Made by a program: the position numbers and the translations under genes. The notes beneath the pieces were generated by a model. The model saw only the letters and a list, made by a program, of their open reading frames with translations. It did not search any database and was not told the origin of the DNA. From positions 1 through 32,000 of the forward strand of contig NBVN01000007.1 of assembly GCA_003056265.1 (NCBI GenBank): a stretch of DNA of 32,000 nt. Reading direction: 5' to 3'. This DNA is from Zestosphaera tikiterensis. GTDB lineage: Archaea; Thermoproteota; Thermoprotei_A; Sulfolobales; NBVN01. Shown here piece by piece: positions 13,081-27,997 of the stretch (positions are counted from its first letter, which is position 1; the number at the start of each line of letters is the position of its first letter).

Positions 13081-13947
13081 ATGGTGCATAGAAATCTTCG
13101 TGGGGTGTATACGGTGGTGGAGCAAGAACATCGTTTGGGTTATGTGAAGATTCCTAATTTTCATGAGGTGCGTGAGTTACCTACGTGTGGTTCTTGGTTT
13201 GTGGTGGAGGAGAAGGTTGATGGGAAGACGTTTGACGGTAGTTCGGCGTGTGTTGAGGTGTGGGGTGTTGAGTTGTGTGTGTTTGGTGAGTATGTAGGGG
13301 TAACTCATTTAATATTTTACAAGGATTTAATGAGTTACGTGTTTGTTTTTGATGTGCGGTTGAATGGCATGTATTTAAAACCTCTTCCTAAGGTGTTGAT
13401 TTCTACTTTGCTTGGTATTCCTCACGCCCCTATAAAAGGTTTTATAAGGGAAGTTACTGAAGAAGTGGTTACTCAATACTATATAGAGGAAAAAAGCTAT
13501 TTTAAAACAGACCTCAACCCCGTAGTATGTAAAAAACATCCGCAAATATGTCAAAACTTTAAAGAACTATACGGCGAGAACTTCAGCGAAGGCATAGTCG
13601 TAAAATGTTATGAAGACGGAAAAATAAAAGCAGTAAAATACGTTAAACCAGAATTCGATAAAATAATAAACGAAATAGGAAGATATGAAAACTACCCAAA
13701 CACTAACATAGTAAAATTCAACATAGATACAGCAGCAAAACTACAGAAAACAAACCTAGAAAAAGTAATAAAGAATAACGCAAGTCAAACACACATTCAG
13801 AACCTTCTAAAACTCTTCATAGAAGCATATGAAAACACATACTCAAGTAAAACCATAGAAGAAGCGGTTAAAACGCTCCCTGGAAGGAACAAGGATATGT
13901 TGAAGATAGCTATAGAAAGATGTGTTAGTAATTTAGAAGCCTGTTAA
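13081..13947 (+). CDS. ATP-dependent RNA/DNA ligase-like nucleotidyltransferase (small RNA-ligase type)
   Basis: Covalent nucleotidyltransferase motifs occur in the correct order: I is EEKVDGK (KxDG), III is VFGEYVG, IIIa is FVFDV, IV is SEGIVVK (EGxxxK), and V is AVKYVKPEF (KxK). At 288 aa it fits stand-alone RNA-ligase-type enzymes better than a replicative DNA ligase. Confidence 0.75.
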   Translation: MVHRNLRGVYTVVEQEHRLGYVKIPNFHEVRELPTCGSWFVVEEKVDGKTFDGSSACVEVWGVELCVFGEYVGVTHLIFYKDLMSYVFVFDVRLNGMYLKPLPKVLISTLLGIPHAPIKGFIREVTEEVVTQYYIEEKSYFKTDLNPVVCKKHPQICQNFKELYGENFSEGIVVKCYEDGKIKAVKYVKPEFDKIINEIGRYENYPNTNIVKFNIDTAAKLQKTNLEKVIKNNASQTHIQNLLKLFIEAYENTYSSKTIEEAVKTLPGRNKDMLKIAIERCVSNLEAC

Positions 13948-13979
13948 TACTTAATATAAAAGGTTTATATATTGTTCTA

Positions 13980-14480
13980 TTAGAAAAAAGCTAGTGTTTT
14001 TAGTGTCTTTTTTATTCTTACTATTGATTCATGATCCCCTTCTTTAAATAGCTTTAGCAACGGGAGGAGAGATTTCAGAATTTCTTCTCTCTTTAACGCT
14101 TCTTGCGTTGGAGTATCGTGAACTGAATAAGGTTCTATTATGTAGCTTGAACCAAATACGTGCTGGAATATCTTGAGAGCTCTTTCCATGTGAAAATCTG
14201 AGGTAACTAAAGCTATGTTTTTAGCGTTTACTTTCTGAGCGATGAGCTTAGCGTAATAAGCATTATCTAACGTATCCTCCGAGTTAGGATCAGAAAGAAG
14301 CTTTTCTGGAGATATTCCTTCACGAAGAGCTATGTGTGTCATATACTCAACTTCATCCCTGTTTCCAACAAGCAGTAATTGTTTACAGACACCATTCTTA
14401 ATTAGCTCAACACCTTTTAAGGTTCTCATCTTTCCAGCCTCTCCAAGACCACCGCCTAAGACTACTGCTAAATCACACAT
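13980..14480 (-). CDS. DUF218 (YdcF/SanA-like) domain protein
   Basis: CDLAVVLGGG ... LLLVGNRDEVEYM ... EDTLDNAYY ... IALVTSDFHMERA follows the DUF218 pattern. It lies 11 nt downstream of the HExxH gene on the same strand. Confidence 0.7.
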   Translation of the reverse strand: MCDLAVVLGGGLGEAGKMRTLKGVELIKNGVCKQLLLVGNRDEVEYMTHIALREGISPEKLLSDPNSEDTLDNAYYAKLIAQKVNAKNIALVTSDFHMERALKIFQHVFGSSYIIEPYSVHDTPTQEALKREEILKSLLPLLKLFKEGDHESIVRIKKTLKTLAFF

Positions 14481-14491: not shown

Positions 14492-16198
14492 TCAGAAAAA
14501 CATTCCATGAAGACCCGAAAGCTTGTTTAGTGCTCTACCTAGCCTGAGAACTAGGTACAACCATAACTTTAGGAAGAGCTCAAAATGGTACTCATCAAAA
14601 CTGCTTAGATCTAAGATTTCTCCTGCCACTGACTTATTTGGATCCTCAGTACTTATAAGCTCCTTCAACTCTTTAATTACTTCACAATACCTCTTAAACT
14701 CATCTCCCATGAGCACTCTTCCCTTTTCTAGGACTTCATCTTGTTCTCCTAAGCTTAGCAAGTAGAGTATTTCAAACGCTGTTCTCATGGTTAACGGAAG
14801 ATCGCCAACAAGATCCTCTAACGTTCCAAACTCCCTGTTAGTTCTTTTTACATGAACTCCCCTCATGCCTCCTTCTTCCCTGCTTAATGTAGGCTCTGCT
14901 AGGGGATCATATCTCAGTATTTCACAGTTTCCATCCCAACATACTCTCGTGAAAACTGTAGCATTCTCATAAGTGCGTTGAGATGCAAGCGATACTAGAC
15001 TAGCGAATCTTGACGCAAGGTAGTCAAAGACCTCAGGTTCTTCAGCAATGATCTCCGAAAGTAGTCTAATGACCTTGGCATTAACCTCATAACGTTCATA
15101 TAAAATATAATGCAGTACTGTTGTAAGCCTCTTTTCTTCGTTGGTCGATGTTTCTATATATTCGCCTTTAAGACCTAGTTCAAACCTCTTCTTAATTTCT
15201 TCAGGAAGGTGATGAAGTCCGATCTCTAACCTATATCTGTCCACTAAGTTAAGGGGGATATCTAGGGAAGTCTTAGCGATTTCAACGAGTTTTCCTTTGT
15301 TACCTCCTTTGTTTAGGAAATCCTCCGATAGATTAAGAATTTCAGTAGCATATTTTCTTAGGGCATCGTCTTGAAAATATATTCTTAGGTACTCATCCCT
15401 TCGATTAACGAATTCTGGTTCAACAAGAACCCAAGTTACAGGCTCTACAACGATTCCTATTATTGAACTATAGAAACCTCGCAAAAACAAATGGTGAGTT
15501 AAAAAGTCCCTAAAGACTTCTACATGATCTGGGTTTTTACTAAATTCTCTAACAGCATTCTCAAGTTTTTTAAGCTCGTTAAAAGTTTCATTTCTCCCTA
15601 TACCATTACCTCCATTTTCTCTTGGAAACCCAGTAAATCTATGAAACTTCTCGAGTAGGTAGATAAGATCAAGCCTTTCTTTCCAGCTAAGGGCATCTAC
15701 CAGAGTAGCAAGGGATGTTCCTCTAAGTATCATCCAGTGCACGTATTCGTGTATAAAGGCTCTCATAAATCTGCTTTCCGGAGGAGATTTTAAGTTTAAG
15801 TTATATATATTGTTCTCTAGCTCATTAAGGATTCCCTTAATCTTAGTACTGTACAACAATTCACATCTTTCCCTACTTTCACCACTACACTGTAAACCCA
15901 ACTCTGTTACTGGTATTGGCCCATTGATATATATAATCCTACCAGTATACATGCCTTCGCTAACATACGATAGCCGTGTAGTCCTTGAAAGAGATAAGAG
16001 CTGGAAAGGGGTATGGTTCTCTATTATTATGCCAGCAAAGGGGTTAAGTAGTGGAATCCGTCTGCTAACTCTGATTACTTTTGGAAGAGTCTTAAAAGCT
16101 TGAGTAAGGATATACCTCTTAACGGATGCAGGTGATTTATTGAAGACATTAGCTATCAAGCGTAACATTCTATCACTCTTTCTTCTCCAGATCCTCAA
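14492..16198 (-). CDS. Large uncharacterised protein with an HExxH motif (putative metallopeptidase-like). Likely start is the ATG at 16168.
   Basis: HEYVH is encoded at 15737-15751 (checked on the DNA: CAC GAA TAC GTG CAC). The track start at 16198 is a TTG. The ATG at 16168 lies 4 nt after the TGA of the upstream wHTH gene. No other motif recognised. Confidence 0.7.
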   Translation of the reverse strand: MRIWRRKSDRMLRLIANVFNKSPASVKRYILTQAFKTLPKVIRVSRRIPLLNPFAGIIIENHTPFQLLSLSRTTRLSYVSEGMYTGRIIYINGPIPVTELGLQCSGESRERCELLYSTKIKGILNELENNIYNLNLKSPPESRFMRAFIHEYVHWMILRGTSLATLVDALSWKERLDLIYLLEKFHRFTGFPRENGGNGIGRNETFNELKKLENAVREFSKNPDHVEVFRDFLTHHLFLRGFYSSIIGIVVEPVTWVLVEPEFVNRRDEYLRIYFQDDALRKYATEILNLSEDFLNKGGNKGKLVEIAKTSLDIPLNLVDRYRLEIGLHHLPEEIKKRFELGLKGEYIETSTNEEKRLTTVLHYILYERYEVNAKVIRLLSEIIAEEPEVFDYLASRFASLVSLASQRTYENATVFTRVCWDGNCEILRYDPLAEPTLSREEGGMRGVHVKRTNREFGTLEDLVGDLPLTMRTAFEILYLLSLGEQDEVLEKGRVLMGDEFKRYCEVIKELKELISTEDPNKSVAGEILDLSSFDEYHFELFLKLWLYLVLRLGRALNKLSGLHGMFF

Positions 16199-16511
16199 TC
16201 AATCCTTTAAGTTTCTCTTCATGGTTTTCATCCATTTTATCCACTAAACGAGCAAGGCGCATTAGCAACACTCTCCTTCTAATAGCTGTACTGCTTTCAA
16301 TTTCCTTTAAAACACGCAATCCTGCTTCAGTTAAACTATATACGTTAAATTCATCCTTTCTAACTAAACCCTCTCTTAAAAGTTTCTGAAGGGTGTGCCA
16401 TACAGTTTTCTCATTAAGACCAGTAGCTTTAGCTATGTCAGCAGCTCTCCCCCTACCTTTTTGCGAGAGATAGTGAAGGACTTCAACCTCTGTTGGAGTT
16501 CTAGCCGACAT
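16173..16511 (-). CDS. Winged-helix (MarR/TrmB/ArsR-like) transcriptional regulator
   Basis: VLHYLSQKGRGRAADIAKATGLNEKTVWHTLQKLLREGLVRKDEFNVYSLTEAG is a typical wHTH. It is tightly coupled to the downstream 568-aa gene. Confidence 0.8.
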   Translation of the reverse strand: MSARTPTEVEVLHYLSQKGRGRAADIAKATGLNEKTVWHTLQKLLREGLVRKDEFNVYSLTEAGLRVLKEIESSTAIRRRVLLMRLARLVDKMDENHEEKLKGLIEDLEKKE

Positions 16512-16556
16512 TACTTGCCACCAGCATATTGTATTTTTCTATGGAAGTTAATAAGC

Positions 16557-16576
16557 TTTTGAAGAATTCTTCAAAA
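16557..16576. promoter_or_regulatory. Perfect 20-bp palindrome TTTTGAAGAATTCTTCAAAA, a candidate operator upstream of the wHTH operon
   Basis: Read directly. It lies 46 nt upstream of the wHTH start (16511), in the 121-bp intergenic region. The half-site GAAGAATTC recurs at 12992-13000. Confidence 0.5.
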
Positions 16577-16632
16577 TCAGAAATACTTGCTATAGAATAC
16601 TTTAATTGATGTTTACTATTTGCCAGTCATTT

Positions 16633-17808
16633 TTATAGTATGGTTTGAACTTCTCTATGCTTAAACCTATTCGATTCAAATCTAATCGTTTTTCCTATGG
16701 CGCAGATTAGGGATCGTATCTTTTCTCTTAATTGGTAAACTTCATCTACTTTATCTTTAAGGACGGATATGTTTTTGTTGTCTATGGCTTCCTTCTTTAG
16801 GTTTTCTACTCTTTCGATGACTTCAAGATAGTTTGGATCTACTCTACGCGTGTTTATGAATTCCTTCTTAAACGCTTCTTTAACGCTCATACCTAAACGC
16901 TTCTCCAACTCCTCGACGCTCATTTCCTTAGGTAGATCATGCAAGGCTTTCAAAGCACGGGCAATAGCCTCCAGCATGATCACATAAGTTCGTTTTAGAG
17001 CATCTATTGCTTTAAGAAGCTCTAAAGCGGCAGATAAGTCAAGCATTTCAGAAACGAACTCATCCGCTTTATTTATCCATTCATCAACAAGAGTTCCTGG
17101 AACTTCCGTTACTTCTCCATGTTCTACCTTCTTTCTAAACTTTATAATGTCTTCGAGCCATTTAACATACTCTAACTTAAGCAGACCTGCGTCGACGAGC
17201 TTTTCCTTCACCTTTACGGGCAATTTACTAGGCGGGGACGGTTCTTGATCTAAGAGCATTAACACGGCTTGAGCTGAGTTGGTCATAGCTTTATAGCAGT
17301 TTTCCGCTACTATGAGAACCTTAGATGCTTTAGCTTCAAGCAACTTTCTAGGAACTTCCTCCAGATATTTTTCCGCAGCCTCCTTAGTCCTAGGTATTTT
17401 TCCACTCTTTAAGAGTATCTTCCAAGGCGTAAAGAAGCCTACATCGTATAGGGGTATCCCATCCTTGATAAAAGTGTATACTATTGGATGTCCATTACTC
17501 GCATATTCCGTGAATTCTGTTAAACTCCATAAATGTATGGAAAGCCTTCTCGAAACGTTACGGGCTATATTATTTAAAATATCTTCTATTTTATCCATAT
17601 TTATTTTAATTTCCTCTTCTTCTATATGAATAGTATCATCTATTATGACGAGGATATCTATGTCGCTGGATTCATTTAGTTCGTTTCGAGCAGCAGAACC
17701 AACTAACACAATAGACTTAATGAGTTTATTGATGTTTGCGTCACTAAGAACCTTTTTAACAAACAAGCTAACTATTTCCCCAACTTTAGACGCTAATTCC
17801 ATAGTCAA
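16633..17808 (-). CDS. Fused minimal nucleotidyltransferase (MNT) and HEPN-domain protein with an extra C-terminal helical region. Likely start is the ATG at 17802.
   Basis: MNT motif is VGSAARNELNESSDIDILVIIDD. The HEPN-like helical domain carries an Rx4H motif (FRKKVEHGE). The track start is a TTG. The ATG two codons in gives MELASKV. Confidence 0.85.
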   Translation of the reverse strand: MTMELASKVGEIVSLFVKKVLSDANINKLIKSIVLVGSAARNELNESSDIDILVIIDDTIHIEEEEIKINMDKIEDILNNIARNVSRRLSIHLWSLTEFTEYASNGHPIVYTFIKDGIPLYDVGFFTPWKILLKSGKIPRTKEAAEKYLEEVPRKLLEAKASKVLIVAENCYKAMTNSAQAVLMLLDQEPSPPSKLPVKVKEKLVDAGLLKLEYVKWLEDIIKFRKKVEHGEVTEVPGTLVDEWINKADEFVSEMLDLSAALELLKAIDALKRTYVIMLEAIARALKALHDLPKEMSVEELEKRLGMSVKEAFKKEFINTRRVDPNYLEVIERVENLKKEAIDNKNISVLKDKVDEVYQLREKIRSLICAIGKTIRFESNRFKHREVQTIL

Positions 17809-18002
17809 GGCTCTCTCACCCTCTTATGAAGCCATTTATCTCCGGTTCTACCTATAGGCCATGGAAAATCTTCGCCGTATACATGCACCATGAATTCGTT
17901 CCCCTTCAGACTGACATGTTCCTCTTGATCACTTCGAGATATATGTAAGGGTGTATACCAGTCAGACTGTTTCTTAAAGTTGAATTTCTCCTTCCACGAC
18001 AT
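17805..18002 (-). CDS. Small protein (65 aa) co-transcribed with the MNT-HEPN gene
   Basis: ORF track. Its stop abuts or overlaps the MNT-HEPN start. TATA-like TTTATATA lies about 30-38 nt upstream of its ATG on the minus strand. Confidence 0.5.
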   Translation of the reverse strand: MSWKEKFNFKKQSDWYTPLHISRSDQEEHVSLKGNEFMVHVYGEDFPWPIGRTGDKWLHKRVREP

Positions 18003-18056
18003 ATTTCCACCATTTATATATTTACTAAGAGGGTATATAAACTTTTAGGAGATAAG

Positions 18057-18099
18057 TTCTAATAGTAGATATGTTCACTGAACATATCTACTATTAGAA
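18057..18099. promoter_or_regulatory. Perfect 43-bp palindrome (21-bp arms, 1-nt centre) upstream of the 65-aa/MNT-HEPN operon
   Basis: TTCTAATAGTAGATATGTTCA C TGAACATATCTACTATTAGAA, verified base by base. Confidence 0.5.
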
Positions 18100-18430
18100 T
18101 ATTCCACTAAACAAACAGAAAACTCCATCCATGATATTTTGAAGAGATTATGTTCTGATAACTTAAATGCTAACGCCCTATGCTTCTAGTGATAAGTTTA
18201 AATTAGGGGTAGTAAAGAAATAATTGTAGGGTCAAATGAATAAAGACAAATTAGAGACTCTGCTAACCGCAATGAAAGAACTGAAAGAACATTTGGAGAG
18301 ATCTCGATAACAGAATCTACCCTGTTTGTGGCAAACTGATATATGCTACAGTTTGATACGATGGTCAGAACCAATAATAATAATTTTTATGATATTTCAT
18401 TGAAAGACCTAGAGTAAAACATTGCAGAGA

Positions 18431-18454
18431 GAAGCGGTTAAAAGAGACTGAAAG
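18431..18454 (+). repeat. Isolated CRISPR-repeat-like 24-mer (18 of 24 identical to the array consensus)
   Basis: GAAGCGGTTAAAAGAGACTGAAAG compared with the consensus GAAGTAATAGAAAAAGACTGAAAG. The 5' GAAG and the 3' 9-mer GACTGAAAG are identical. Confidence 0.3.
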
Positions 18455-18635
18455 AGAGAAAGAAATAAGTAAATGGGAAAAGCTGTTATATACTAGATGT
18501 TGTTAAAGGTTAGAAAGTCTTTAACTTAGAAGACTTCCTAGCCCATAAGAGAGGTAGGGTCCTAAAGGATCCCCTCCTTATCTGATTACGTGACCCCACC
18601 ATCACTACTAAGCCCAAAACGGTCTCTGGTGCTAC

Positions 18636-19310
18636 TTAACTAGTCTTTAGATTGTTCTTACCTAGCTTTAGCCCGTATTTCATCGCTGCCTCGTTTACTT
18701 TCTTTACGAACCTGGGGTAGCTTATCCTGTAGTTTTCGGCTCTCGCCATTCTCCATAAGTCTTTCTTGCTTAGGTATGGGTATTTACGGATTAGCTTAAC
18801 GACGAATTCCTCGGGGATCGACGGTGGTCTGCCGACGTGCTTCCCTTCCTTCCTAGCTCTTTCCATCCCCGCTTTGATTTTCTCCTTCAATGCCTCAACG
18901 TATTTTTGGTAGCCGTACGCTAAAGCCCTCACAACTATGTCGAACATTAACTTCCTCAACGCTTCGTCAGGTATTGCCGTCAGCGACTGAAGCCACTCCT
19001 CTTGATAAGTTATTACGTTCACGCCCCTCTCCCTTAAGCCGTCGAGTGTTTTAACTAGGTAGTCATACCTTCTTGAGATCCTGTCAAGCGAAAAAACGAG
19101 TATAGCGGCACCCTCCTTAGAAGCTAACTCAACCGCCTTAACCCACCCAACCCTCTCCTCAGGCTTCGTTTCATACCCGCTAACACCCGGATCCTCAAAC
19201 ACTCCAACAACCTCAACACCCCTCGACTCGGCGAACCTCCTTAAAGCAAGAACTTGATTCTCAACCTTCTGATCCTCCGTCGACACCCTAGCGTAGATCA
19301 CGGCCTTCAA
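18636..19310 (-). CDS. Serine recombinase (resolvase/invertase type: N-terminal catalytic domain, C-terminal HTH)
   Basis: MKAVIYARVSTEDQ (catalytic Ser motif), DPGVSGY, SLDRISRR, and the HVGRPP linker followed by an HTH-like C-terminus. TTG start. TTTAAATA lies about 35-40 nt upstream on the minus strand. Confidence 0.92.
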   Translation of the reverse strand: MKAVIYARVSTEDQKVENQVLALRRFAESRGVEVVGVFEDPGVSGYETKPEERVGWVKAVELASKEGAAILVFSLDRISRRYDYLVKTLDGLRERGVNVITYQEEWLQSLTAIPDEALRKLMFDIVVRALAYGYQKYVEALKEKIKAGMERARKEGKHVGRPPSIPEEFVVKLIRKYPYLSKKDLWRMARAENYRISYPRFVKKVNEAAMKYGLKLGKNNLKTS

Positions 19311-19512
19311 TTCTTCATCCCCGTAATCAAAATACTTAATACCCTTATTTAAACGTTTTGTTTATGAAAACACCCCTTAAGAAACAGTTGCGAAACCACC
19401 CCCTTCCGTTAACAAACCCTATAAAGAGGTAATGAGACAAACCTTCACCGTATATGCTAGTTATTATATGTTAGGAAAATCTAAAATTGCGTTTTTCTAG
19501 TGTTTAGGGTCT

Positions 19513-19674
19513 TTAGTTTTTAAAGCTGGTTCGTCGGTAGATCCCTCTTTCAGTTCTTTCTATATACTCTAAATCTTTCTTTAAGTTCTTAAGTTCTTCC
19601 TTCAATTCGACAAAGTGAAGAGTTCTAAGGGTTGTGGTGGAATGCCAACACTTATAAACTTTGTCATTAAGCAT
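19513..19674 (-). CDS. Possible small ORF (53 aa, coiled-coil-like)
   Basis: Own translation: MLNDKVYKCWHSTTTLRTLHFVELKEELKNLKKDLEYIERTERGIYRRTSFKN. It is below the ORF-track length cutoff and has no supporting signal beyond being open. Confidence 0.25.
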   Translation of the reverse strand: MLNDKVYKCWHSTTTLRTLHFVELKEELKNLKKDLEYIERTERGIYRRTSFKN

Positions 19675-19891
19675 CAAATACGTTGAAGCCCCTGATAGTA
19701 CGTTTTTTAAACTTAATAGAGAGCAACCTCCCGGACATCCTTAGGGAAGATGGTAAGCTAAAATCGCCTAAGTCCATAGTAGAGAAACTTCATAAGCTAT
19801 TGAAACAGGATTGATACGTACGTTACTAGGGATTCTTAGAAAGATGACTTACGTTGAAGAAAGACCTTTAATTTCTTTCTAGTGAACGAAG

Positions 19892-21805
19892 TTACTTATG
19901 GATTACAGTTAACGTTGGGGTTTTCTCAGGTTCAGCAAGTCTAGTGATTATGACGTACTTACCGTATTTACTAAGTTCAGAGACAACTTTGTCGAATCTC
20001 CTAGGGTCGAAAGCTACTAAAGCTTCATCCGCTATAATGGGTGCCACACCTTGATATTCCTCAATGATCTTTAACCTATAGCCTACGAGTACGGCTATCA
20101 ACGCTAGAGCTGTTCTCTCGCTAGTGCTTAAAACCTCAATCGGTTGTTCGTATTCTCTACCACTTGGGAATTTTCTAATAACTCTAATATCAAATACTCG
20201 CTTAAGCATACCAGTAGTGGGGTCTTTCTCCTCCCTTTTATATAGCCTCACACCTTTAATCCAAGTGAAGCCCAGTTCTTTAATGACTTCAGAAGCTATT
20301 CTAGAGAACTCATCGCTTATACGTGATAGTGTTTCATATAATTCCTTCTCAACGTTTTCAAGTTCTTTACTTGTCTTTTCGATCTTCTCCCTTACTTCAG
20401 TTAATTTCCTACCAGCTTCACTTCTTTTAGCGATTTTTTCTTCTAAATCTCTTATGTGTTGCTCTACTTCACCAAGCCTTCTCTCTAGCTCAGCTCTTCT
20501 GTCAGCAGCAACGCGTTCTTCTTCTGTAAGTTGCTTTCTTAATTCTTCCAACTCTTTTTCAATTAACCCCCTCTCGTTTTTAAGCCTTGCTACCTCATCT
20601 TTATAATGTTCAAACGCTCTCTCAAGCTCTTCAATCCTCCTCTTAAGAGATGGTAGCTTAACATCCACGATTTCTCTAACTTCGTTGTATTTCTTCTGTA
20701 GACTCTCTAACTCCTTCCATAATTCCTTAAGCTTTTCATTTGCGTTAGCTATCCTAACCTCATAATCTTTTACTATAGACTCCTTACTCTTCATAACCTC
20801 GTCTTCTACTTCCACCTCACGTCTAGACCAGAACTCTTCAGGGTTTTCAATAGGTTTACCGCATACTGGACACGCAGATGCTTTTGTAGCTTTAGCTAGG
20901 TGTACAACTGGGATTCTAGCGTCTTGACCAACGAGATACTCTCTACGTTCGTTCTCCAGCTTCTTTATAAGGCTGTCAGTCCTGTCTATTTCTCCTTTAA
21001 TCTTTGCTAACTCTTCCTCAGGATTCTCGTGAATGGCGTAAAACTCTCTAACCATAGTTTCATACCTCTCTAGATCCGCACGTGCGTCATCTATAGCTTT
21101 CGCAGTAGTTGCTATGATGCCCTCAGGTTTCTCTAGGTCTTCTATTCTCTTACTGACTTCACCAAGTCTTCTATTGAGGGTGGCTATCCTATCTTGTAAA
21201 CCTCTTACTCTTTCAATAGATATAGCCCTCAGCTTCTTAAGCTCTTCCTCTAAATCCTTCTTTAACTCCTCATATTTCTGTCTTTCCTCACTTACCTTCT
21301 TAAGTTCTTCAACATCCTTAAGGAGGAGGTTCTCCTCAGATTTTAGCTTATCTAACTCCTCCCTTAAGCTTTCCCTCATCTTTTCATACTCATCAAGCCT
21401 GAAGACCTTAACTAAGTAGTCAGTAATATCGGCGTTTGCTTGAGTTACAACCCTTCTGGCAACCTCCCCTAAGTAAGGATCTAATATGACATACTTCAAC
21501 CTATCGCTAACGATAACAGGCTTAGATTCAACCTCTAAAACCCTACCGTTTACTCTCTTAAACCTCCTAATGAATTCCCTACTGTCAATAACTATCTTTA
21601 TATATCCCTCATCAGCATCGATGTTTAGAAGCTGTTCAAGAGGGATAGTGTTGGGTGCGTACATCGCTAGTATAGCTTTAACAAGGGAGGTTTTACCAGC
21701 AGCATTCGGTGCTACAACTTCGTTTAACCCTTCACTAAACTCAAACTTATGTTTGCCTATAAGACCTCCTACATTTTCAACTTCGACCACTATCATGGGC
21801 ACCAC
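19892..21805 (-). CDS. SMC/Rad50-like ABC ATPase with a long coiled coil and a central CxxC zinc-hook-like motif. Likely start is Met4 at 21796.
   Basis: Walker A is APNAAGKTS. About 400 aa of E/K/L-rich heptad sequence follow. CPVCGKP is encoded at 20861-20872 mid-coil. The signature-like motif is LSTSERT and Walker B is PIIADEA. Met4 forms an ATGA overlap with the upstream gene's stop. Confidence 0.85.
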   Translation of the reverse strand: MVPMIVVEVENVGGLIGKHKFEFSEGLNEVVAPNAAGKTSLVKAILAMYAPNTIPLEQLLNIDADEGYIKIVIDSREFIRRFKRVNGRVLEVESKPVIVSDRLKYVILDPYLGEVARRVVTQANADITDYLVKVFRLDEYEKMRESLREELDKLKSEENLLLKDVEELKKVSEERQKYEELKKDLEEELKKLRAISIERVRGLQDRIATLNRRLGEVSKRIEDLEKPEGIIATTAKAIDDARADLERYETMVREFYAIHENPEEELAKIKGEIDRTDSLIKKLENERREYLVGQDARIPVVHLAKATKASACPVCGKPIENPEEFWSRREVEVEDEVMKSKESIVKDYEVRIANANEKLKELWKELESLQKKYNEVREIVDVKLPSLKRRIEELERAFEHYKDEVARLKNERGLIEKELEELRKQLTEEERVAADRRAELERRLGEVEQHIRDLEEKIAKRSEAGRKLTEVREKIEKTSKELENVEKELYETLSRISDEFSRIASEVIKELGFTWIKGVRLYKREEKDPTTGMLKRVFDIRVIRKFPSGREYEQPIEVLSTSERTALALIAVLVGYRLKIIEEYQGVAPIIADEALVAFDPRRFDKVVSELSKYGKYVIITRLAEPEKTPTLTVIHK

Positions 21806-22158
21806 CTGTTAAGCACGTGTTCGGTTATACCGAGCTTTTTAAGAGTTTCAACTTCGCTAGAGCTAAGACCCTTTGAAAGCCATCTTTCAGCAGCTCTCCT
21901 GATCTCCTTAGGTATCCAGTCTTCGTCAATATACCTAGCATACATCAGAGACGTCTGCAGACCCCTCTCCTTGGCTTTGAGATATGCTTGGTAAACGAAA
22001 GTAACTGAGTAACCATCGTCGAGACTGAGTAAGTATACAATATCGCCTCTCTTTAATACATCTACATGAATGGGATGCTTTTGCTTTATCTTGTTTAGCT
22101 TTGTCACAGTATTCCTATACAAGTTCAAATCTGGATCTTCAACCTTTAATATCAGCAC
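21793..22158 (-). CDS. Small protein (121 aa) translationally coupled to the Rad50-like ATPase
   Basis: ORF track. GTG start, with TATA-like CTTAAATA about 40 nt upstream. The basic/helical C-terminus (RRAAERWLSKGLSSSEVETLKKLGITEHVLNRW) could be an HTH, but this is not established. Confidence 0.6.
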   Translation of the reverse strand: MLILKVEDPDLNLYRNTVTKLNKIKQKHPIHVDVLKRGDIVYLLSLDDGYSVTFVYQAYLKAKERGLQTSLMYARYIDEDWIPKEIRRAAERWLSKGLSSSEVETLKKLGITEHVLNRWCP

Positions 22159-22222
22159 GTGTTATTTCACCAATAAATGGTAATGGTTTCAGAAGTATTT
22201 AAGCATTAATACAGAAATATTA

Positions 22223-22260
22223 AATAAAATCATTAATATAATAATATTAATGATTTTATT
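22223..22260. repeat. All-but-one A/T hairpin: 17-bp perfect stem and 4-nt loop, in the 129-bp spacer between the AAA+ gene and the 121-aa gene
   Basis: AATAAAATCATTAATAT / AATA / ATATTAATGATTTTATT, read directly. Confidence 0.6.
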
Positions 22261-22287
22261 AATACAAAAATATTAGAGCTTTAGAGT

Positions 22288-23046
22288 TCATATTACTTCG
22301 AGTCTCTCCAGCTTCTCTATGTAGTGCCTTATCACTATTCTCTCCACTTCTCTTGCGGATCTCGGCAACGGATTCATTGACGTTATCTCCTCCTTAACTC
22401 TGTTGTAGGGTACTCCGAGTTCTCTGCACCTCTTCTCTGCTATTGCTAAAGCCGTATCTATGTCGAGGGGTTTGAACTCTATCGGGTAGAGTCTGTCTAT
22501 TAGTGCTTTATCAACTAACTCGTACCAGTTGGTTGTTGCTATGACTCCTATTCTAGAGGTGTCTAGCTCGTCAAGCATGTGGAAGAAGACGTTGTCTTGG
22601 GCTATATGCCAAGACTCTATGCCTTCTCTCCCGCGTGACATGAATATTGACTCTACGTCGTCGAAGAGTATTATGGTATACCCCATAAGTTTTTTCGATT
22701 CTTCAAAAATCTCAACGATCCTTATCTCAGATTCGCCATATAGCGGTCTAGCTATGTCGGATGCGTCTACGAGGATAAGGTATACGTCCTTAAACTTTTT
22801 ACCTAATTCCCTAGCGACTGCGTAAGCAAGGCTGGTTTTCCCTGTTCCAGGCTCTCCATAGAGTAGGAAACCTTTAATACCTCTTTTAACTCCCTCTCTA
22901 AACTGATAGTAGAATGTCTTGAAGATTAGGTTGAATATCCTCTTATATTCCTCACCTACAAACCTACTGACGTCATAATCTTCAGGAACTCCAACAGCCT
23001 TAATTACCTTTAAAGGTTTGCTAAGTTCTTTAGCTCTTCTACTCAT
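22288..23046 (-). CDS. Classic-clade AAA+ ATPase, single ATPase module without a recognisable N-domain
   Basis: Walker A is LLYGEPGTGKTS. The pore-loop-region-like sequence is PLYGESEIRIVEIFEE. Walker B is IILFDDVE. Sensor-1/SRH is VIATTNWYELVDKALIDRL. Confidence 0.9.
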   Translation of the reverse strand: MSRRAKELSKPLKVIKAVGVPEDYDVSRFVGEEYKRIFNLIFKTFYYQFREGVKRGIKGFLLYGEPGTGKTSLAYAVARELGKKFKDVYLILVDASDIARPLYGESEIRIVEIFEESKKLMGYTIILFDDVESIFMSRGREGIESWHIAQDNVFFHMLDELDTSRIGVIATTNWYELVDKALIDRLYPIEFKPLDIDTALAIAEKRCRELGVPYNRVKEEITSMNPLPRSAREVERIVIRHYIEKLERLEVI

Positions 23047-23503
23047 AGGTTAATCTCCTTTTTCTAGATTCGTTTTCTAGGATATGCTTAATCATTATGT
23101 ACGTGTCTTTAGAAATTTCATATTCTTCGCAATATCCAGCAACTACTCCACCCATAATTGACCCGCTCTCTACATCAAAACGATCTTTTATGAATTTAAG
23201 CACCAGTTCATTTCTTTTTCTGCCTTCTGAATATTCTGAAGACGTAGAAGGTGAGGAGTACTTCTCTTCTATCGCATCTATAGGTATAGATTCCTTATGT
23301 TCATAAACGTGTATGTACCCGTGATTGTAGCCCGGATCGAACACGACGTAGTACTTTCTATCTTTACTTACGTAGAATAAGTAAAGACGACGGAAGTGCT
23401 CTCCCCACTTAGTGTTTTCACAGATGTTTACTTTAATACCCTCTATAGATCCTTTCGTATCTCTCCCTAACTCTCCTAACATACCTTTTAACACCTTCTT
23501 CAT
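23039..23503 (-). CDS. Hypothetical protein (154 aa), overlapping both neighbours
   Basis: ORF track. It shares an 8-nt overlap (ATGAGTAG) with the AAA+ gene start and a 50-71 nt overlap with the upstream 302-aa ORF. No motif recognised. Confidence 0.55.
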   Translation of the reverse strand: MKKVLKGMLGELGRDTKGSIEGIKVNICENTKWGEHFRRLYLFYVSKDRKYYVVFDPGYNHGYIHVYEHKESIPIDAIEEKYSSPSTSSEYSEGRKRNELVLKFIKDRFDVESGSIMGGVVAGYCEEYEISKDTYIMIKHILENESRKRRLTYE

Positions 23504-24341
23504 GCATTCTACACCATAGAATGTTTAACCTATATCCGTTTGAAGTAACTTGCTCAATGATGTCGTTACTTACCATAAATTCAAACGCTTCAGTTCTAAC
23601 GCTTCTCCACCACTCAATCGGCGGTCTTTTCTTATTTTCATCACTAAGGAAGTAGTTATCTACGTAGTTCACTCTAGCTACCTCCAACACATCCCTGATT
23701 CTCATTGAATGCGATTCAAGACCTGATAAAGTGTATATCATTGGAAGCTTGATAAACCAAGGTATCACGGGTTTCTCGCCGAGAGTTCTATGTAGTTTAA
23801 CTGCTGTGCTCATTATGTAGACACCTATTAACCCGCTTATGACACTTAGCATTTCTTTAAATTGTCTAGGGTCGATGAGCGTTACTAGGTGTTGAGCTAC
23901 GGGACCTACAAGTTGGAAGAATTCATCGTTTATTCTATACACATATCGAGGATCGTCACTACTAACCAAGATTTTATAATAAGGTAGCGGCTTCAGATAA
24001 TCCAGCAATCTATCTGTCGGTATCTGAAAAGCATAGCTCCATTCTTCAAGTATGTCCTTAGATATGTACAGTTTTGTCAAGTCTTTACTATAGTACGCTT
24101 CACCACAACGGTCAACAACAGACCATAGAATCTTAAGAGGTTTCTGCCTGAAGAAGCGGTACCTGAGCAAGACGTCTCTAAACCTAGAAGCTAAAGCATA
24201 TGCTTCACTAGGGCTAGAAAGTACGCGAGTTTCCTTCTTTGATGTTTGTGCGTTTAACTCATCAAGTATTGCAAGTATAGTCTCCTCTGTAAGGGGTTTG
24301 TAGTTTTTCAATGCCCAAACATTTACTGTTGGTTGAGCCAA
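23433..24341 (-). CDS. Hypothetical protein (302 aa)
   Basis: ORF track. TTG start overlapping the upstream ORF by 19 nt. No motif recognised. Confidence 0.65.
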   Translation of the reverse strand: MAQPTVNVWALKNYKPLTEETILAILDELNAQTSKKETRVLSSPSEAYALASRFRDVLLRYRFFRQKPLKILWSVVDRCGEAYYSKDLTKLYISKDILEEWSYAFQIPTDRLLDYLKPLPYYKILVSSDDPRYVYRINDEFFQLVGPVAQHLVTLIDPRQFKEMLSVISGLIGVYIMSTAVKLHRTLGEKPVIPWFIKLPMIYTLSGLESHSMRIRDVLEVARVNYVDNYFLSDENKKRPPIEWWRSVRTEAFEFMVSNDIIEQVTSNGYRLNILWCRMHEEGVKRYVRRVRERYERIYRGY

Positions 24342-25204
24342 GGTCTCCCCCTCGAAAGTCTTCTCTCCCTCTTCAACATGTAGTATCTACGGTAAGCTGG
24401 CGCTACCACCATGTTTGCGAAAGTTCCTGAGACTTCTAGGGGGTATGTCCTCACGATTATTTTGTTGTCGTAAAGCACTCCTATAGCTTTAAAGTATTCA
24501 ACTTCAAACCTATCCCTTAAAGGTCTTAAAGACGCTATGAGTTTCTTAGCTTCACTCCACTCGGTTGGTTCTATCGTTGGTTTAGTAACTACCGTTCCAT
24601 CTCTTTTAACGTAGGCTAAAGGCGTTAGCAAACCAATCATCGTGGTGTAGCTTTTTGGAAGTCTTGAAGTTTTCTGCATTACGTAAAGTGAGCTTATACC
24701 TGACACAACTTTATGGGGGTAGGAAAACGCGTCTGATTCAAAACCTGCGAGTGATTTAAAATCAACTTTTTCAGCAACGTAAACCGCTACGTGTCTAATA
24801 AGCTCGTTGATTACGTCGGGTTTAAGCCTGATTTTACTTGGTGTTGTATTTACAACGTCGGCAAGCCTTAAGTCTTCCATAGATTTAAAGGCTGACCTAA
24901 CGTTATCGACCTCATCCGGTTCAAAACCCGGCACTTCATCCTCAGAAATTTCATATAGGTTCATATCCTTCTTTAGGAAGCCGTAGCTAGCCTTAGCTAA
25001 AGAATAAACAAGCACCTTCTCTAGGCTTTTAGAAGTGAAGGGAAGGAAGTAAATTAACCCAGCGAAAAACGAAGAAACGTCTACATGACCCTGCACAACA
25101 GCTTCAAGAGCTACATCAACTGTAATACCCGCAAACCTTCTTAAGGAAACCCATCTCTTATCTATATATCTATAATCCACGTAAACTGACAAATGCACCA
25201 CCAA
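24323..25204 (-). CDS. Hypothetical protein (293 aa), first gene of the operon
   Basis: ORF track. GTG start. TATA-like TTTATAAG lies about 30 nt upstream on the minus strand (plus-strand 25226-25240 region). No motif recognised. Confidence 0.65.
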   Translation of the reverse strand: MVVHLSVYVDYRYIDKRWVSLRRFAGITVDVALEAVVQGHVDVSSFFAGLIYFLPFTSKSLEKVLVYSLAKASYGFLKKDMNLYEISEDEVPGFEPDEVDNVRSAFKSMEDLRLADVVNTTPSKIRLKPDVINELIRHVAVYVAEKVDFKSLAGFESDAFSYPHKVVSGISSLYVMQKTSRLPKSYTTMIGLLTPLAYVKRDGTVVTKPTIEPTEWSEAKKLIASLRPLRDRFEVEYFKAIGVLYDNKIIVRTYPLEVSGTFANMVVAPAYRRYYMLKRERRLSRGRPWLNQQ

Positions 25205-25318
25205 TAAGTATTTCTTTTTCGTAGCTTATAAACTTTATATCTAGCTAGTCGTAAAACTCAAAGCAACGTCTTAATTAAACTTTATTTTAAGTAGATGAAG
25301 AAACAATGCCAAAACCCT

Positions 25319-25495
25319 TTATATTCTATTTATAAGGTATAATACATTGTTTAGTGCTCCAAGTTTGAAGTCGGCTCTATTATCTCTCCTTAGTACTTCG
25401 TCGAGTGTTCTGCTGAGGTCTTTTCTCAGCTTAATCTTCTCTATTCTTACTTTCTGTATCGCTCCATTTGGTAGGGAGTACTCGTATTCACGCAC
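25319..25495 (-). CDS. Possible small ORF (58 aa) between the operon promoter and the CRISPR array
   Basis: Own translation from a GTG: (M)REYEYSLPNGAIQKVRIEKIKLRKDLSRTLDEVLRRDNRADFKLGALNNVLYLINRI. AGGGAGAAGGAA lies directly upstream. It is below the ORF-track cutoff. Confidence 0.3.
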   Translation of the reverse strand: MREYEYSLPNGAIQKVRIEKIKLRKDLSRTLDEVLRRDNRADFKLGALNNVLYLINRI

Positions 25496-25516
25496 TTCCT
25501 TCTCCCTACCTAGGTG

Positions 25517-25910
25517 GTTATAGTTTTTCCCTCAATCTTCAGCTATTAGGACATGAAGTTGAAGTATAGACCTAATCGGATGCCACTCTTTCAGTCTTTT
25601 TCTATTGTTTCGATACCCGAGGTCTCTCAAAGCCCTCATAGTGTCGTAGATCAGCTGCGTCTTTCAGTCTTTTTCGATTGCTTCGGAGTATGAAGTGCTT
25701 GACTACGCCACGAAATACGTGGTGGGGGAGGACACCGCTTTCAGTCTTTTTCTATTACTTCCCTACTTCTTTCGTAGTCTTGAGGTTCTGCACTACGTGT
25801 TGCCTGAGCCATCTTTCAGTCTTTTTCTATTACTTCCCATATCCGCTTCTAATTTCGGCTTCGCCTTCCAGCCTAGACTCTAATACCTTTCAGTCTTTTT
25901 CTATTACTTC
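25517..25910 (-). CRISPR. CRISPR mini-array: five clear 24-nt repeats plus one heavily degenerate terminal repeat, with spacers of 49-53 nt
   Basis: Repeats start at 25588, 25661, 25738, 25813 and 25887. Plus-strand form is CTTTCAGTCTTTTTCTATTACTTC; transcribed-strand form is GAAGTAATAGAAAAAGACTGAAAG. The GAAAG 3' end sets the orientation to minus. The two low-coordinate repeats carry substitutions (TTGTTTC, CGATTGCTTC), and 25517-25540 is a decayed copy, consistent with a leader at the high-coordinate side. The spacers are unique. Confidence 0.85.
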
Positions 25911-26038
25911 AAGTTATTGTTTGACGTAGGAGTATTTAAATATTTCCGTGGTGGTTTTCGGAAAGACCATCAAACACCATCAGATGCCGACCATCACGTT
26001 GTCGGGTCGTAAACGTATGATTTATACTCCAGTTGTTA
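25911..26038 (-). promoter_or_regulatory. Putative CRISPR leader with a palindromic TATA-like box TATTTAAATA (25933-25942)
   Basis: A 128-nt unique sequence lies between the newest repeat (25887-25910) and an oppositely oriented solitary repeat (26039-26062). The TATA-like element lies about 23-32 nt from the first repeat. Confidence 0.45.
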
Positions 26039-26062
26039 GAAGCAATCATAAAAGACTGAAAG
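26039..26062 (+). repeat. Solitary CRISPR repeat in the opposite orientation (20 of 24 identical to consensus)
   Basis: GAAGCAATCATAAAAGACTGAAAG. No further repeat follows at the expected 73-77 nt spacing. Confidence 0.6.
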
Positions 26063-26184
26063 GAATCATCTAGTTAAATCGGATTAAGTCCGATTACCGG
26101 ACACTTCACGTGTGCTTTGATGGACACCCCCTATAACCCCCTATTTAAATACTGTCCGGTTACCGGATTAAGTGGGGTGAGTAC

Positions 26185-26346
26185 ATGACGAAAGGAGGAG
26201 AATCTATCTCTCCGCGGTTAATGCGTTCGGTTTACGCCACGTATAAAATCATATGCGGGCACGGCAGTATTAAGCTCGCAGATCTGGAAGTTCTGCAAGA
26301 ACCTCAAAAAACTTGTAACAGAAAGGCTGTTTTTCTACTTAAATAA
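26185..26346 (+). CDS. Possible small ORF (53 aa)
   Basis: Own translation: MTKGGESISPRLMRSVYATYKIICGHGSIKLADLEVLQEPQKTCNRKAVFLLK. GGGGTGAG lies 4 nt upstream, and TATTTAAATA (26142-26151) lies about 35-43 nt upstream. Confidence 0.3.
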   Translation: MTKGGESISPRLMRSVYATYKIICGHGSIKLADLEVLQEPQKTCNRKAVFLLK

Positions 26347-26361
26347 CTAAACTAATGTAAT

Positions 26362-26446
26362 TAGATTTTCTGGGTTTTAGGCATGAGAGTAAGCATACAC
26401 TCTAGTAGAGTGTAAATTTACACTTAGGAAGGATTAGCTTTTCGAG
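26362..26446 (-). repeat. Copy B of the ~85-bp repeat (inverted relative to 6415-6500)
   Basis: See copy A. Contains GTGTAAATTTACAC (26410-26423) and the TACACTCTA-C-TAGAGTGTA palindrome. Confidence 0.75.
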
Positions 26447-26671
26447 AGCAAGCCTGAAAAATCATTAAGGGTATTGCTTTTCCGTTGTTTCCCAACAGCC
26501 CCTAATACAGGAATATTAATGGTTTCATTATAACTGGGGTTAAAGGGGAAGCATTATAACGGGAATTATAGAGAAAACCACTATAACTCTAGTTAATATG
26601 CACGCGCTGAAGCCGCTTTTTAAACCCCTGCATATTATAGTGGGGGCGCGTTCACCCCAAGCTGGAGGTGA

Positions 26672-27700
26672 GTGAGGAGAGGTGGGGATGGGGTGTCCAC
26701 GCGGTTCGATGTTGGGAATTATGTAGGCGAGGGTGTGGGGAGGAGGACGCACGCGACTGAGGATCCGCTGGAAGAAGCGCGGAGGCTGTACAGGGAGAAG
26801 GGGATCAGCTACACGCTGTGGTGGTTCATCAGAGAGATATGGGCTAGGCGTAGGCACGCGGTAAAGTTCGAAGACCTATTCAGGTTGCACCAGTACATCG
26901 CAGGTGCCCGGAGTAAGAACTCAACTAGAAAGGCGCTGAAGCGGTTGGAGGAATACGGGCTGATAGAGAACCTAGGCGACGGGTACTACAAACCGCTTAT
27001 CATGGATCAGGCAATAGTCGAAGGTTCCATAGACTTTAGCAGAATTAGAACAAGGGATCAGGTGTTAAGGAATCGCAAGGACGCTGTTGAAACGTCCATG
27101 CAGCTGAAGGATATGCCTAGGGAGTTGATGCCTGTGGTTAAAGAAGCACAGAAGCTGATAGAGCGGGGCGATAAGTGGAAGGCGGTAGACCTAATAGCAC
27201 ACACGTTATTACCAATCCGCAAAACCGGAGTCCTTATAGCTAGGAAGGACGACCTGTTTTTATATTATGAGAGGAAGACGGATAAGATGCACATGATAAG
27301 GAGCTGGCGACTCACAGCACTACTAGACTTTCTAGGAATAAAAGATGAAGTACTAGTCGCACACAGACACAGCGAGGCCGACGGCATTATCCGCAAGTTA
27401 TTCGGTTCACACGACAACGCCCGGAGGCTACACTACTTACTAAAGGAGAGGGGCTGGTTCGAATACCCGGCTGAAAACTATTTCTATAGAATCTTCGAGA
27501 ACCCCATGACCCACGACTGGTGGATCTCGGTCTACAAGCTAAACAGAGAAACAGACAGAATGGAAGAAGACCTCAGAGTAGAGGTCGGCAGAAGCGCAAT
27601 CACGGGGATTCAGGTGAAGGCCGGCACAATAGTGACGAGGGAGCACATTAAAAAAGAGAATGAAGACACATATTTCCGCCGCACGAAGGGGTGGATCTAG
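26672..27700 (+). CDS. Hypothetical protein with an N-terminal winged-helix-like segment (342 aa); start codon uncertain
   Basis: NSTRKALKRLEEYGLIENLGDGYYKP is wHTH-like. The region is visibly more GC-rich than its flanks. The GTG start is very close to GGAGGTGA, so the true start may be a few codons downstream. Confidence 0.65.
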   Translation: MRRGGDGVSTRFDVGNYVGEGVGRRTHATEDPLEEARRLYREKGISYTLWWFIREIWARRRHAVKFEDLFRLHQYIAGARSKNSTRKALKRLEEYGLIENLGDGYYKPLIMDQAIVEGSIDFSRIRTRDQVLRNRKDAVETSMQLKDMPRELMPVVKEAQKLIERGDKWKAVDLIAHTLLPIRKTGVLIARKDDLFLYYERKTDKMHMIRSWRLTALLDFLGIKDEVLVAHRHSEADGIIRKLFGSHDNARRLHYLLKERGWFEYPAENYFYRIFENPMTHDWWISVYKLNRETDRMEEDLRVEVGRSAITGIQVKAGTIVTREHIKKENEDTYFRRTKGWI

Positions 27701-27997
27701 CTCTGAAGTGGCATAAAGAATGGAGTATCAGGCACTCCTTTCATTGTTTTAATGGGTTCTGAATTCCGGTTTGGACAATATCAGTATTCCTAATACTAGT
27801 ACTAGGGTTTGGAACATGGCAATGAACCCCGCTGGTAGATTCCCCGCAATAGCTTCAGAGATAGATTCAAAGTACTGAGCTTGATGTGAATCACTGCCGC
27901 CGTTAATCTGGGTACCGGGATCAGATTGCCTCCCAGATGATGAGATTGGCTTCACTATGCTCTGAGTATCTTAATAGTACTTGAGGTTCTGCTTGTC

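Follow-up and report, generated by a model that had tools for sequence, protein, structure and literature searches.

The window analysed here is a 32,000-nucleotide stretch of DNA from the archaeon Zestosphaera tikiterensis (positions 1 to 32,000 of the forward strand of contig NBVN01000007.1, assembly GCA_003056265.1), and gene E on its minus strand encodes an SMC-like ATPase with a putative zinc hook in the middle of its coiled coil. By full-length profile match, this ATPase falls within the family of archaea-specific SMC-related proteins (ASRP), which has already been named and the hook of which has already been published. Gene E is the last gene of a conserved cassette of five to six genes, in the order A, B, an optional S, C (encoding an AAA+ ATPase), D and E, and it is this set of partners, rather than the protein family, that is apparently unreported. 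Our preferred reading, to which we assign a probability of roughly 55%, is that the cassette specifies a DNA-tethering complex, dimerised through the ASRP hook and assisted by the cassette partners, which would act as an accessory mobile module on foreign or extrachromosomal DNA.

Gene E encodes a member of the ASRP family

Gene E occupies positions 19892..21805 of the minus strand and reads as 637 amino acids from a GTG codon. An alternative ATG at codon 4 (nucleotides 21794-21796) would give a product of 634 amino acids and overlaps the TGA stop of the upstream gene D as ATGA. Because of this overlap, and because the homologue P0001, which is 98% identical to the gene E product, is also 634 amino acids long, the ATG is the probable true start. 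When the product was compared with curated family models, the NCBIfam model NF045487 (ASRP) matched it with an E value of 5.9e-103 and 345.5 bits, the curated cut-off being 300, and the match spanned residues 11-625, corresponding to positions 1-593 of the 593 positions of the profile. Since this match is full-length and above the curated cut-off, the protein is placed in the ASRP family. The competing family hidden Markov models scored about six times lower than NF045487: the Rad50, SMC and arcadin-4 models gave 43-58 bits against cut-offs of 567-1000; of the Rad50 family models, the best reached 58 bits (cut-off 700) and the others 17-43 bits (cut-offs 847-1087); and the NCBIfam Rkd4 (arcadin-4) model gave 45.9 bits (cut-off 860).

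The ASRP family was defined by Yoshinaga, Nakayama & Inagaki in 2022 and includes coalescin (ClsN) of the Sulfolobales and Sph1/Sph2 of Halobacterium; a zinc hook was reported for the vast majority of its members, and in the published tree the ASRP clade stands apart from Rad50 with full support, while arcadin-4 is found inside Rad50 (PMC9389158). One of the AlphaFold models shown in the same paper is that of HHQ49854.1 (PMC9389158), a protein of Ignisphaera/Desulfurococcaceae that is included in the ASRP alignments and has an N-terminal sequence nearly that of our homologue P0037, which is itself 37% identical to the gene E product. Another homologue, from Ca. Methanodesulfokores (locus L013), is 53% identical to the gene E product, and an ASRP from that organism is also present in the published alignments. 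As judged from such sequences, members of gene E's own clade were part of the data set on which the family was defined. The initial annotation of this region had proposed a distinct, small hook-ATPase family, with ASRPs among the groups suggested for comparison; clustering of the protein with a family for which both characterisation and partners were already available would have spoken against it. Its distinctness from Rad50 is borne out but its novelty is not, the family being ASRP (NF045487, PMC9389158); likewise, the family is indeed a characterised one, but the partner set is undescribed in the searchable literature.

The gene E product does not qualify as an orthologue of ClsN, as neither a place in the ClsN clade nor the nucleoside hydrolase and Fur neighbours by which such an orthologue would be recognised was found for it. 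No Sulfolobus ClsN was retrieved among its 46 homologue matches at E<=1e-5, and the host family of the window is Desulfurococcaceae. It is to be noted that two papers give Rad50 as the sole SMC-superfamily protein of the Desulfurococcales (PMC10769869, PMC11344861); the accessory ASRP of Z. tikiterensis is an exception to this statement, as the ASRP paper had already implied.

The hook is apical and the head motifs are family traits

The AlphaFold2 model of the gene E product, with a predicted local distance difference test (pLDDT) score of 88.9, has a head formed by an N-terminal lobe (residues 1-135) and a C-terminal lobe (residues 516-637), and two long arms between them; all coordinates in this section are on the minus strand. 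The ascending arm (residues 137-306; 20888..21397) consists of helices 137-193, 198-225, 230-258, 262-295 and 297-306, and the descending arm (residues 322-511; 20273..20842) of helices 322-423, 428-461 and 464-511, as assigned by DSSP. Between the two lies a 15-residue hook loop (residues 307-321; 20843..20887), in which residues 311 and 318 form a beta-bridge, and inside this loop is the CPVC motif (residues 312-315; nucleotides 20861-20872), which contains the sole two cysteines of the protein. The initial annotation had placed this motif in the middle of the coiled coil, at coordinates that proved exact, and had raised the symmetry of the arms around it; the two arms, when compared in the model, measure 170 and 190 residues. 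Because loop 307-321 joins helices 137-306 and 322-511, the CxxC is predicted to be at the apex of an antiparallel coiled coil, the length of which may be estimated at roughly 25 nm per arm from the ~170 residues per arm. The reading C-P-V-C-G that the initial annotation gave for archaeal Rad50 hooks was also accurate, as the hook peptide of Pyrococcus furiosus Rad50 (PfRad50) reads AKGKCPVCG (10.1101/2022.06.02.494512). The Rad50 hook structure 1L8D was not recovered by phmmer when only the hook region served as query, the motif being too short. With the complete model as query, Foldseek ranked Rad50 first (7zr1_C, E 3.4e-16), followed by SMC, Smc5/6, MukB, LmuB and JetC, and in the sequence search of the PDB the PfRad50 heads were the best matches.

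In the head, Walker A reads APNAAGKTS (residues 31-39, with GKT given as 37-39; 21689..21715) and takes the form APNAxGKT[ST] throughout the clade. The signature motif is LSTSE (residues 559-563; 20117..20131), of which S560, S562 and E563 are invariant; Walker B is IIADE (residues 590-594; 20024..20038) and is followed by the D-loop AFD; and at the H-loop position, in a strand spanning residues 617-623 of the model, the sequence is VIITR (residues 618-622; 19940..19954), without a His. When the profile of the gene E alignment was matched to the PfRad50 head, APNAaGKTS fell on GQNGSGKSS, LSTSER on LSGGER, and ilaDE on LILDE. Conservation was assessed in an alignment of 33 gene E homologues with identities down to 21%. 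In the hook, C312 is the same in every sequence, and at least 90% of them keep each of P313, C315 and G316; APNAxGKT, LSTSER and the Walker B residues D593 and E594 (each in at least 90%) are likewise conserved, and so is D600. T621 is retained in at least 90%, with R or K next to it in the thermophile clade, and none of the 33 has a His at the H-loop position. Since the hook and the head motifs are conserved down to this level of identity, they are not products of chance. The unusual head motifs can thus be viewed as family traits rather than signs of decay, and the nucleotide-binding site, judged by its Walker A and the DE of its Walker B, is intact. The LSTSE in place of LSGGE and the VIITR at the H-loop site, both of which had been remarked on initially, were located as described, and the small size of 634-637 amino acids was likewise as stated there.

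The ASRP gene closes a conserved cassette

Ten independent contexts had enough flanking sequence for analysis, namely the window, L001-3, L004/L012, L005/6, L007/8, L009/10, L013 (Korarchaeota), L014, L015 (Ignisphaera) and L016 (a 950-kb contig). The gene order in all ten is A (~285 amino acids), B (~300), the optional S (91-154), the AAA+ ATPase (252), D (~120) and ASRP, such that A is always the first gene and ASRP always the last, with D directly upstream of ASRP in 10/10. The initial annotation had noted that gene E is coupled to a 121-amino-acid partner rather than to Mre11; this coupling is real and conserved, and no Mre11 gene is adjacent, but the 121-amino-acid protein is not the sole partner: the cassette has five to six genes, one of them for an AAA+ ATPase.

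In the window, the A/B, B/S, S/C and D/E junctions overlap. A gap of 77-243 nucleotides with TATA-like boxes is found between C and D in every locus, while all other junctions overlap or abut. The gap of the window (22159..22287, minus strand) has A+T-rich, TATA-like boxes (TTTAAA/TTTATA), which together with a GGTG precede the start of gene D, and it also holds a perfect 17-nucleotide inverted repeat, AATAAAATCATTAATAT / ATATTAATGATTTTATT, at 22223-22260. Related copies of this palindrome are located at 26458-26530, upstream of an open reading frame (ORF) for a 342-amino-acid protein with winged helix-turn-helix (wHTH)-like features, and at 17704-17731; the palindrome may be an operator. The gap as a whole is a probable internal promoter or operator for D-E, with its boxes as the putative promoter elements. 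The cassette would probably be transcribed in two units, A-B-(S)-C and D-E.

No paper describing this cassette was found in the searchable literature. The ASRP paper reported 'no apparent consensus' among flanking genes; nonetheless, its Table S1 already lists "AAA family ATPase - hypothetical - ASRP" for entries from Bathyarchaeota and Methanodesulfokores, and in one Desulfurococcaceae entry the gene immediately upstream of ASRP is that of an AAA family ATPase (PMC9389158). The cassette is carried by Desulfurococcaceae, Ignisphaera, unclassified Thermoproteota, Korarchaeota, Nanopusillaceae, and metagenome-assembled genomes labelled 'Thaumarchaeota' and Sulfolobales. A pattern-limited scan of 185,579 GTDB species representatives yielded 3 cassette loci. 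In viral contigs and in phage and plasmid collections the cassette was absent, and only distant haloarchaeal ASRPs were matched there. The gene C product is 77-81% identical between loci of different phyla, e.g., 81% between Desulfurococcaceae and Korarchaeota, whereas the ASRP is only 37-66% identical. Overall, the cassette is patchily distributed across archaeal phyla, mostly in hyperthermophiles, and, because the AAA+ protein is ~80% identical between phyla, this pattern is consistent with horizontal transfer.

Partner proteins of the cassette

Gene A (24323..25204, minus strand) encodes an orphan of 293 amino acids, and gene B (23433..24341, minus strand) another of 302. The two are probable distant paralogues, as suggested by an hhalign comparison with a probability of 88% and an E value of 3e-6 over 222 columns. 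The AlphaFold2 model of B (pLDDT 92.6; predicted template modelling score 0.90) is helical and includes a long basic helix at the C-terminus and two wHTH-like units, at residues ~95-137 and ~221-272. Foldseek searches of the PDB and BFVD with this model found no relative of the whole fold; the only matches were local and confined to wHTH units, i.e., the N-domain of Rio2, AspA and MarR. The B family amounts to 72 clusters at 90% identity, and in a HMMER search of 1.84 billion representative proteins the B profile gave 10 matches, all of them in the B family, without reaching the paralogue A. Gene S (23039..23503, minus strand) encodes an optional small protein of 154 amino acids (91-137 elsewhere), which is absent in about half of the loci; homologues with a common FDPGYxxG..Y motif occupy the same position in L004/L012, L005, L009 and L015.

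Gene C (22288..23046, minus strand) encodes a single-domain, classical AAA+ ATPase of 252 amino acids (Pfam AAA, E 2.2e-22), the profile of which is closest to the D2 domain of Cdc48/p97 (E 5e-25). Its motifs include GEPGTGKT, a pore-loop-like LYG, the sensor-1 sequence ATTN and one Arg finger. Its Walker B, LFDDVE (residues 125-130; 22657-22674), has DD in place of DE, and this is invariant in all loci, including a deep branch that is 44% identical. Gene D (21793..22158, minus strand) encodes an orphan of 121 amino acids that is translationally coupled to E through the ATGA overlap and belongs to a conserved family of 106 clusters at 90% identity, all ~120 amino acids long and without a Pfam domain. 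None of A, B, D and S had a significant match, by sequence or by profile, in Pfam, NCBIfam, PHROGs, PADLOC or the PDB. A link to MADS (PADLOC mad3, E 9.5e-13, with a weak mad8 match of the AAA+ protein) was considered and dropped, since the MADS preprint offered no domain information that would give it meaning.

Partner sets of other ASRP lineages

A deep-branching ASRP, P0042, is 26% identical to the gene E product, and its hook reads CPFDKQAC in place of CxxC (L021, L022). It is encoded in a four-gene cassette (L021, 1012-5005) consisting of genes for a 292-amino-acid protein, an AAA+ ATPase, a 148-amino-acid protein and the ASRP. The L021 AAA+ is 44% identical to gene C and has the LFDDVESIFMSR signature in common with it; the 292- and 148-amino-acid proteins had no detectable relation to A/B or D in single-sequence comparisons. 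In the published Table S1, ClsN genes have nucleoside hydrolase and Fur neighbours and no cassette. Thus, ASRP clades have distinct partner sets, namely the AAA+ cassette, RdfA (rod-determining factor A), or, in the case of ClsN, none. RdfA was also tried as a relative of D, A or B and was rejected, the hhalign probabilities being below 1%. Distant gene E homologues were found in 96 haloarchaeal plasmid records, and those listed are mostly annotated as ASRP. In two Halobacteriota ASRPs, P0043 and P0044, the Walker A sequence is ENATNRTS, in which Arg stands where the P-loop has its Lys, and these proteins may be without the usual ATP binding or hydrolysis.

Genomic surroundings and a putative circular element

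Genes related to defence flank the cassette in several loci. The flanks of L001 contain N6_N4 methylases, DpnII, Mrr and GIY-YIG/PDC-M57B, and those of L005 contain ShosA, an AbiL-like ATPase with PDC-M38B and a PD-T4-4-like ATPase; Piwi flanks L004/L012 and a methylase flanks L009, while the genes flanking L007 and L015 have no recognised identity. In the window, a serine recombinase is encoded at 18636-19310 and a nucleotidyltransferase of 391 amino acids (NTP_transf_2/Polbeta; matching the PADLOC defence-candidate families PDC-S09, E 1e-11, and PDC-M05A) at 16633-17808, ~0.8 kb from the recombinase; a methylase with a Tsp45I restriction enzyme is found at 29937-31979. A perfect 21-nucleotide palindrome, TTCTAATAGTAGATATGTTCA / TGAACATATCTACTATTAGAA, lies at 18057-18099, separated by ~540 nucleotides from the 3' end of the recombinase gene and located shortly after the small ORF 17805-18002 begins. 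Either a recombination site or a terminator is conceivable here.

About 380 nucleotides upstream of gene A, at 25588-25910, is a mini-array resembling clustered regularly interspaced short palindromic repeats (CRISPR), with five 24-nucleotide repeats, CTTTCAGTCTTTTTCTATTACTTC, spaced 73-77 nucleotides apart. Two lone, degenerate and inverted copies of the repeat, at 26039-26062 and 18431-18454, bracket the segment made of the recombinase and the cassette. The array matched no CRISPR family of Rfam, and cas genes were not recognised anywhere in the window; nor were direct repeats that would mark an integration site found around the cassette in the window.

In the 48,380-nucleotide Zestosphaera contig, the proteins encoded at window positions 1179-14480 each carry two accessions and locus tags (B7O98_08660-08730 and _08830-08900, 34 genes apart), while those at 16173-29937 carry one accession each. 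Because the genes of the first ~14 kb occur twice, 34 genes apart, and the later ones once, the window is probably part of a ~34-kb circular element that was assembled past its own start, the alternative being a large tandem duplication. An Orc1/Cdc6 protein is encoded at 3237-4277, and its best plasmid matches are small Methanothermobacter plasmids. The window contains no tRNA, no Rfam match (rRNA included) and no core informational gene, and no Mre11 or other metallophosphatase was found among its ORFs of at least 100 amino acids.

Proposed mode of action and rival explanations

With Rad50, LmuB and SMC complexes as models, two ASRP chains would, as in Rad50, be joined through one Zn2+ held by four cysteines, and ATP would bring about engagement of the heads on DNA, so that the dimer would tether or entrap it. 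Gene D, which is coupled to E and has an HTH-like C-terminus, and the wHTH-like A and B would serve as accessory subunits that bind the heads or DNA, comparable to kleisin/KITE proteins or LmuC, and the Cdc48-like AAA+ with its pore-loop-like LYG may remodel, load, reset, strip or extract the complex. Because of the patchy distribution, the defence-rich flanks and the probable plasmid location, we lean, by a slight preference, toward a role on extrachromosomal or foreign DNA, be it defence or maintenance of mobile elements, over that of a housekeeping chromosome organiser. It is possible, but doubtful, that the cassette is an unrecognised, horizontally mobile archaeal system in which the hook ATPase operates together with winged-helix subunits of its own and a Cdc48-like unfoldase, acting against or for the plasmids and viruses of hyperthermophiles; SMC-based immunity would then have a third lineage in addition to Wadjet and Lamassu.

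Several observations weigh against a tethering complex of this kind acting on foreign DNA. The library scans recognised no nuclease, protease or toxin domain in any cassette protein, such that a defence effector is missing. Although B has two wHTH-like units, neither it nor A, its probable paralogue, matched any kleisin or KITE structure significantly in fold or profile; the best LmuC-like match of B, chain 9uxh_D of LmuACB, was insignificant (E 0.18, probability 0.18). The DD in the Walker B of the cassette AAA+ suggests a slow or switch-like ATPase. The cassette is located among housekeeping genes in L014 and partly so in L016. Elsewhere in the family, rdfA adjoins the ASRP genes of Halobacteriota, a Haloferax plasmid and Methanosarcina (L017, 7230-9950; L020, 5252-7914; L023, 6001-8709), and ClsN compartmentalises the chromosomes of Sulfolobus (PMC10769869); the ASRPs characterised so far function in chromosome architecture or cell shape.

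The last of these points leads to a serious, albeit unlikely, rival, in which the ASRP would be a housekeeping chromosome organiser, i.e., a coalescin-like protein taking the place of condensin in crenarchaea without SMC, for which A, B, D and the AAA+ would supply the loader or regulatory subunits. ClsN, of the same family, structures Sulfolobus chromosomes, and crenarchaea, including Desulfurococcales, have no condensin (PMC10769869, PMC11344861); the chromosomal cassettes of L014 and L016, set among housekeeping genes, fit this role as well. An organiser would, however, sit poorly with the very patchy distribution (the 3 loci of the pattern-limited GTDB scan, and 10 representatives of B in 1.84 billion), with an AAA+ that is ~80% identical across phyla amid variable and often defence-rich flanks, with the lack of cassette neighbours around ClsN, and with the probable plasmid location of the cassette in the window. 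The apparent ~34-kb circle, with its own Orc1/Cdc6 and serine recombinase, brings up a plasmid maintenance or partition module, in which the hook ATPase would bridge or condense plasmid copies and D or A/B would be site-specific adaptors. This is consistent with the presence of ASRPs on 96 haloarchaeal plasmids and with the local wHTH similarity of B to AspA, the centromere-binding protein of pNOB8 (probability ~0.8, E 0.6). It is nonetheless quite improbable, as clearly chromosomal cassettes exist on 62-kb and 950-kb contigs, no copy was found in the viral-contig or plasmid databases, there is no ParA-type partner, and centromere-like repeats, apart from one palindrome, were not found beside the cassette.

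Lamassu-like (ABC-3C) abortive infection is rather unlikely. Here, the ASRP would be the LmuB sensor, D would be LmuC, and A/B or S would be unrecognised effectors, released when foreign DNA is sensed. LmuB has ~650 amino acids, a short coiled coil and often a CPxCG hook, and its system also comprises an effector and a small middle component (PMC10586767); the PADLOC LmuB models were the top defence-library matches of the gene E product (E 1.6e-19 and 3.6e-19), and defence genes lie beside several cassette loci. The LmuB matches (E 1e-16 to 1e-19) are, however, confined to residues 120-523, which are nearly all coiled coil, and leave the heads uncovered; the full-length match is to ASRP, and the Foldseek match to LmuB (1.3e-9) is weaker than those to Rad50 and SMC. 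Moreover, the PADLOC LmuA and LmuC models had no match in A, B, S or D, the Walker B of the gene E product keeps its DE where LmuB typically, though not universally, has changed E to Q (PMC10586767), and Lamassu has no AAA+ partner. Lastly, a Rad50 paralogue that repairs double-strand breaks with a nuclease other than Mre11, which is near the framing of the initial annotation, is hardly credible. Rad50 is indeed the top structural match (7zr1_C, E 3.4e-16), PfRad50 heads are the top sequence matches in the PDB, and PfRad50 has an identical CPVCG hook; but the Rad50 models score 17-58 bits against cut-offs of 700-1087, neither an Mre11 or other metallophosphatase nor a recognisable nuclease is present in the cassette or the window, and the ASRP clade is separated from Rad50 with full support (PMC9389158).

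The protein itself adds little, being one more ASRP, and the conserved AAA+ cassette is the part worth pursuing. To our knowledge, ASRPs, coalescin included, have no known partner proteins; the cassette provides candidate accessory subunits for the ASRP/coalescin family, which would be the first such if the mobile-system reading is true. The clade-specific partner sets suggest repeated recruitment of the family to different functions, and some Desulfurococcales, described as having no SMC-like proteins besides Rad50, carry one on accessory DNA. Should the hook-dimerised complex indeed act on foreign DNA, SMC-based immunity would be extended to hyperthermophilic archaea, with an unusual unfoldase component.

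Comparison with known systems

The gene E product has the same ABC (ATP-binding cassette) head fold, antiparallel coiled coil and apical CPVCG hook as Rad50/SbcC, but its coiled coil is about half as long, its signature is LSTSE in place of LSGGE, its Walker A is APNAxGKT, the H-loop His is replaced by T-R/K, and there is no Mre11 partner. Arcadin-4 (Rkd4) of the Thermoproteales, a Rad50-derived ATPase, is similarly a crenarchaeal coiled-coil protein, but the published tree has it inside Rad50, apart from ASRP, and its model scores far below the cut-off on the gene E product. With LmuB of Lamassu, gene E shares the size of ~650 amino acids, the short coiled coil, the frequent CPxCG hook, a small upstream gene and occurrence in defence islands; however, the sequence similarity is limited to the coiled coil, the Walker B Glu is kept, and the cassette lacks homologues of LmuA and LmuC while adding an AAA+ ATPase and two paralogous winged-helix-like proteins. 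The SMC-kleisin-KITE complexes (Smc-ScpAB, MukBEF, Wadjet JetABC and Smc5/6-Nse1/3/4) likewise combine a coiled-coil ABC ATPase with small winged-helix subunits, two of which are paralogous in the manner of Nse1/Nse3, and Wadjet and Smc5/6 act on extrachromosomal DNA. Unlike them, gene E has a 15-residue hook loop where the hinge would be, none of A, B and D resembles kleisin or KITE proteins significantly in sequence or fold, and the cassette has no Toprim nuclease but has an AAA+ that those complexes do not include. The closest resemblance is to the other archaeal ASRPs, which are of the same size (~600-650 amino acids) and have the same N-terminal Walker A, C-terminal signature and Walker B, and CxxC hook in the middle of an antiparallel coiled coil; but while ClsN is solitary beside nucleoside hydrolase and Fur genes, and the halobacterial and Methanosarcina ASRPs are accompanied by rdfA, the gene E clade resides in a five- to six-gene cassette with an AAA+ ATPase.

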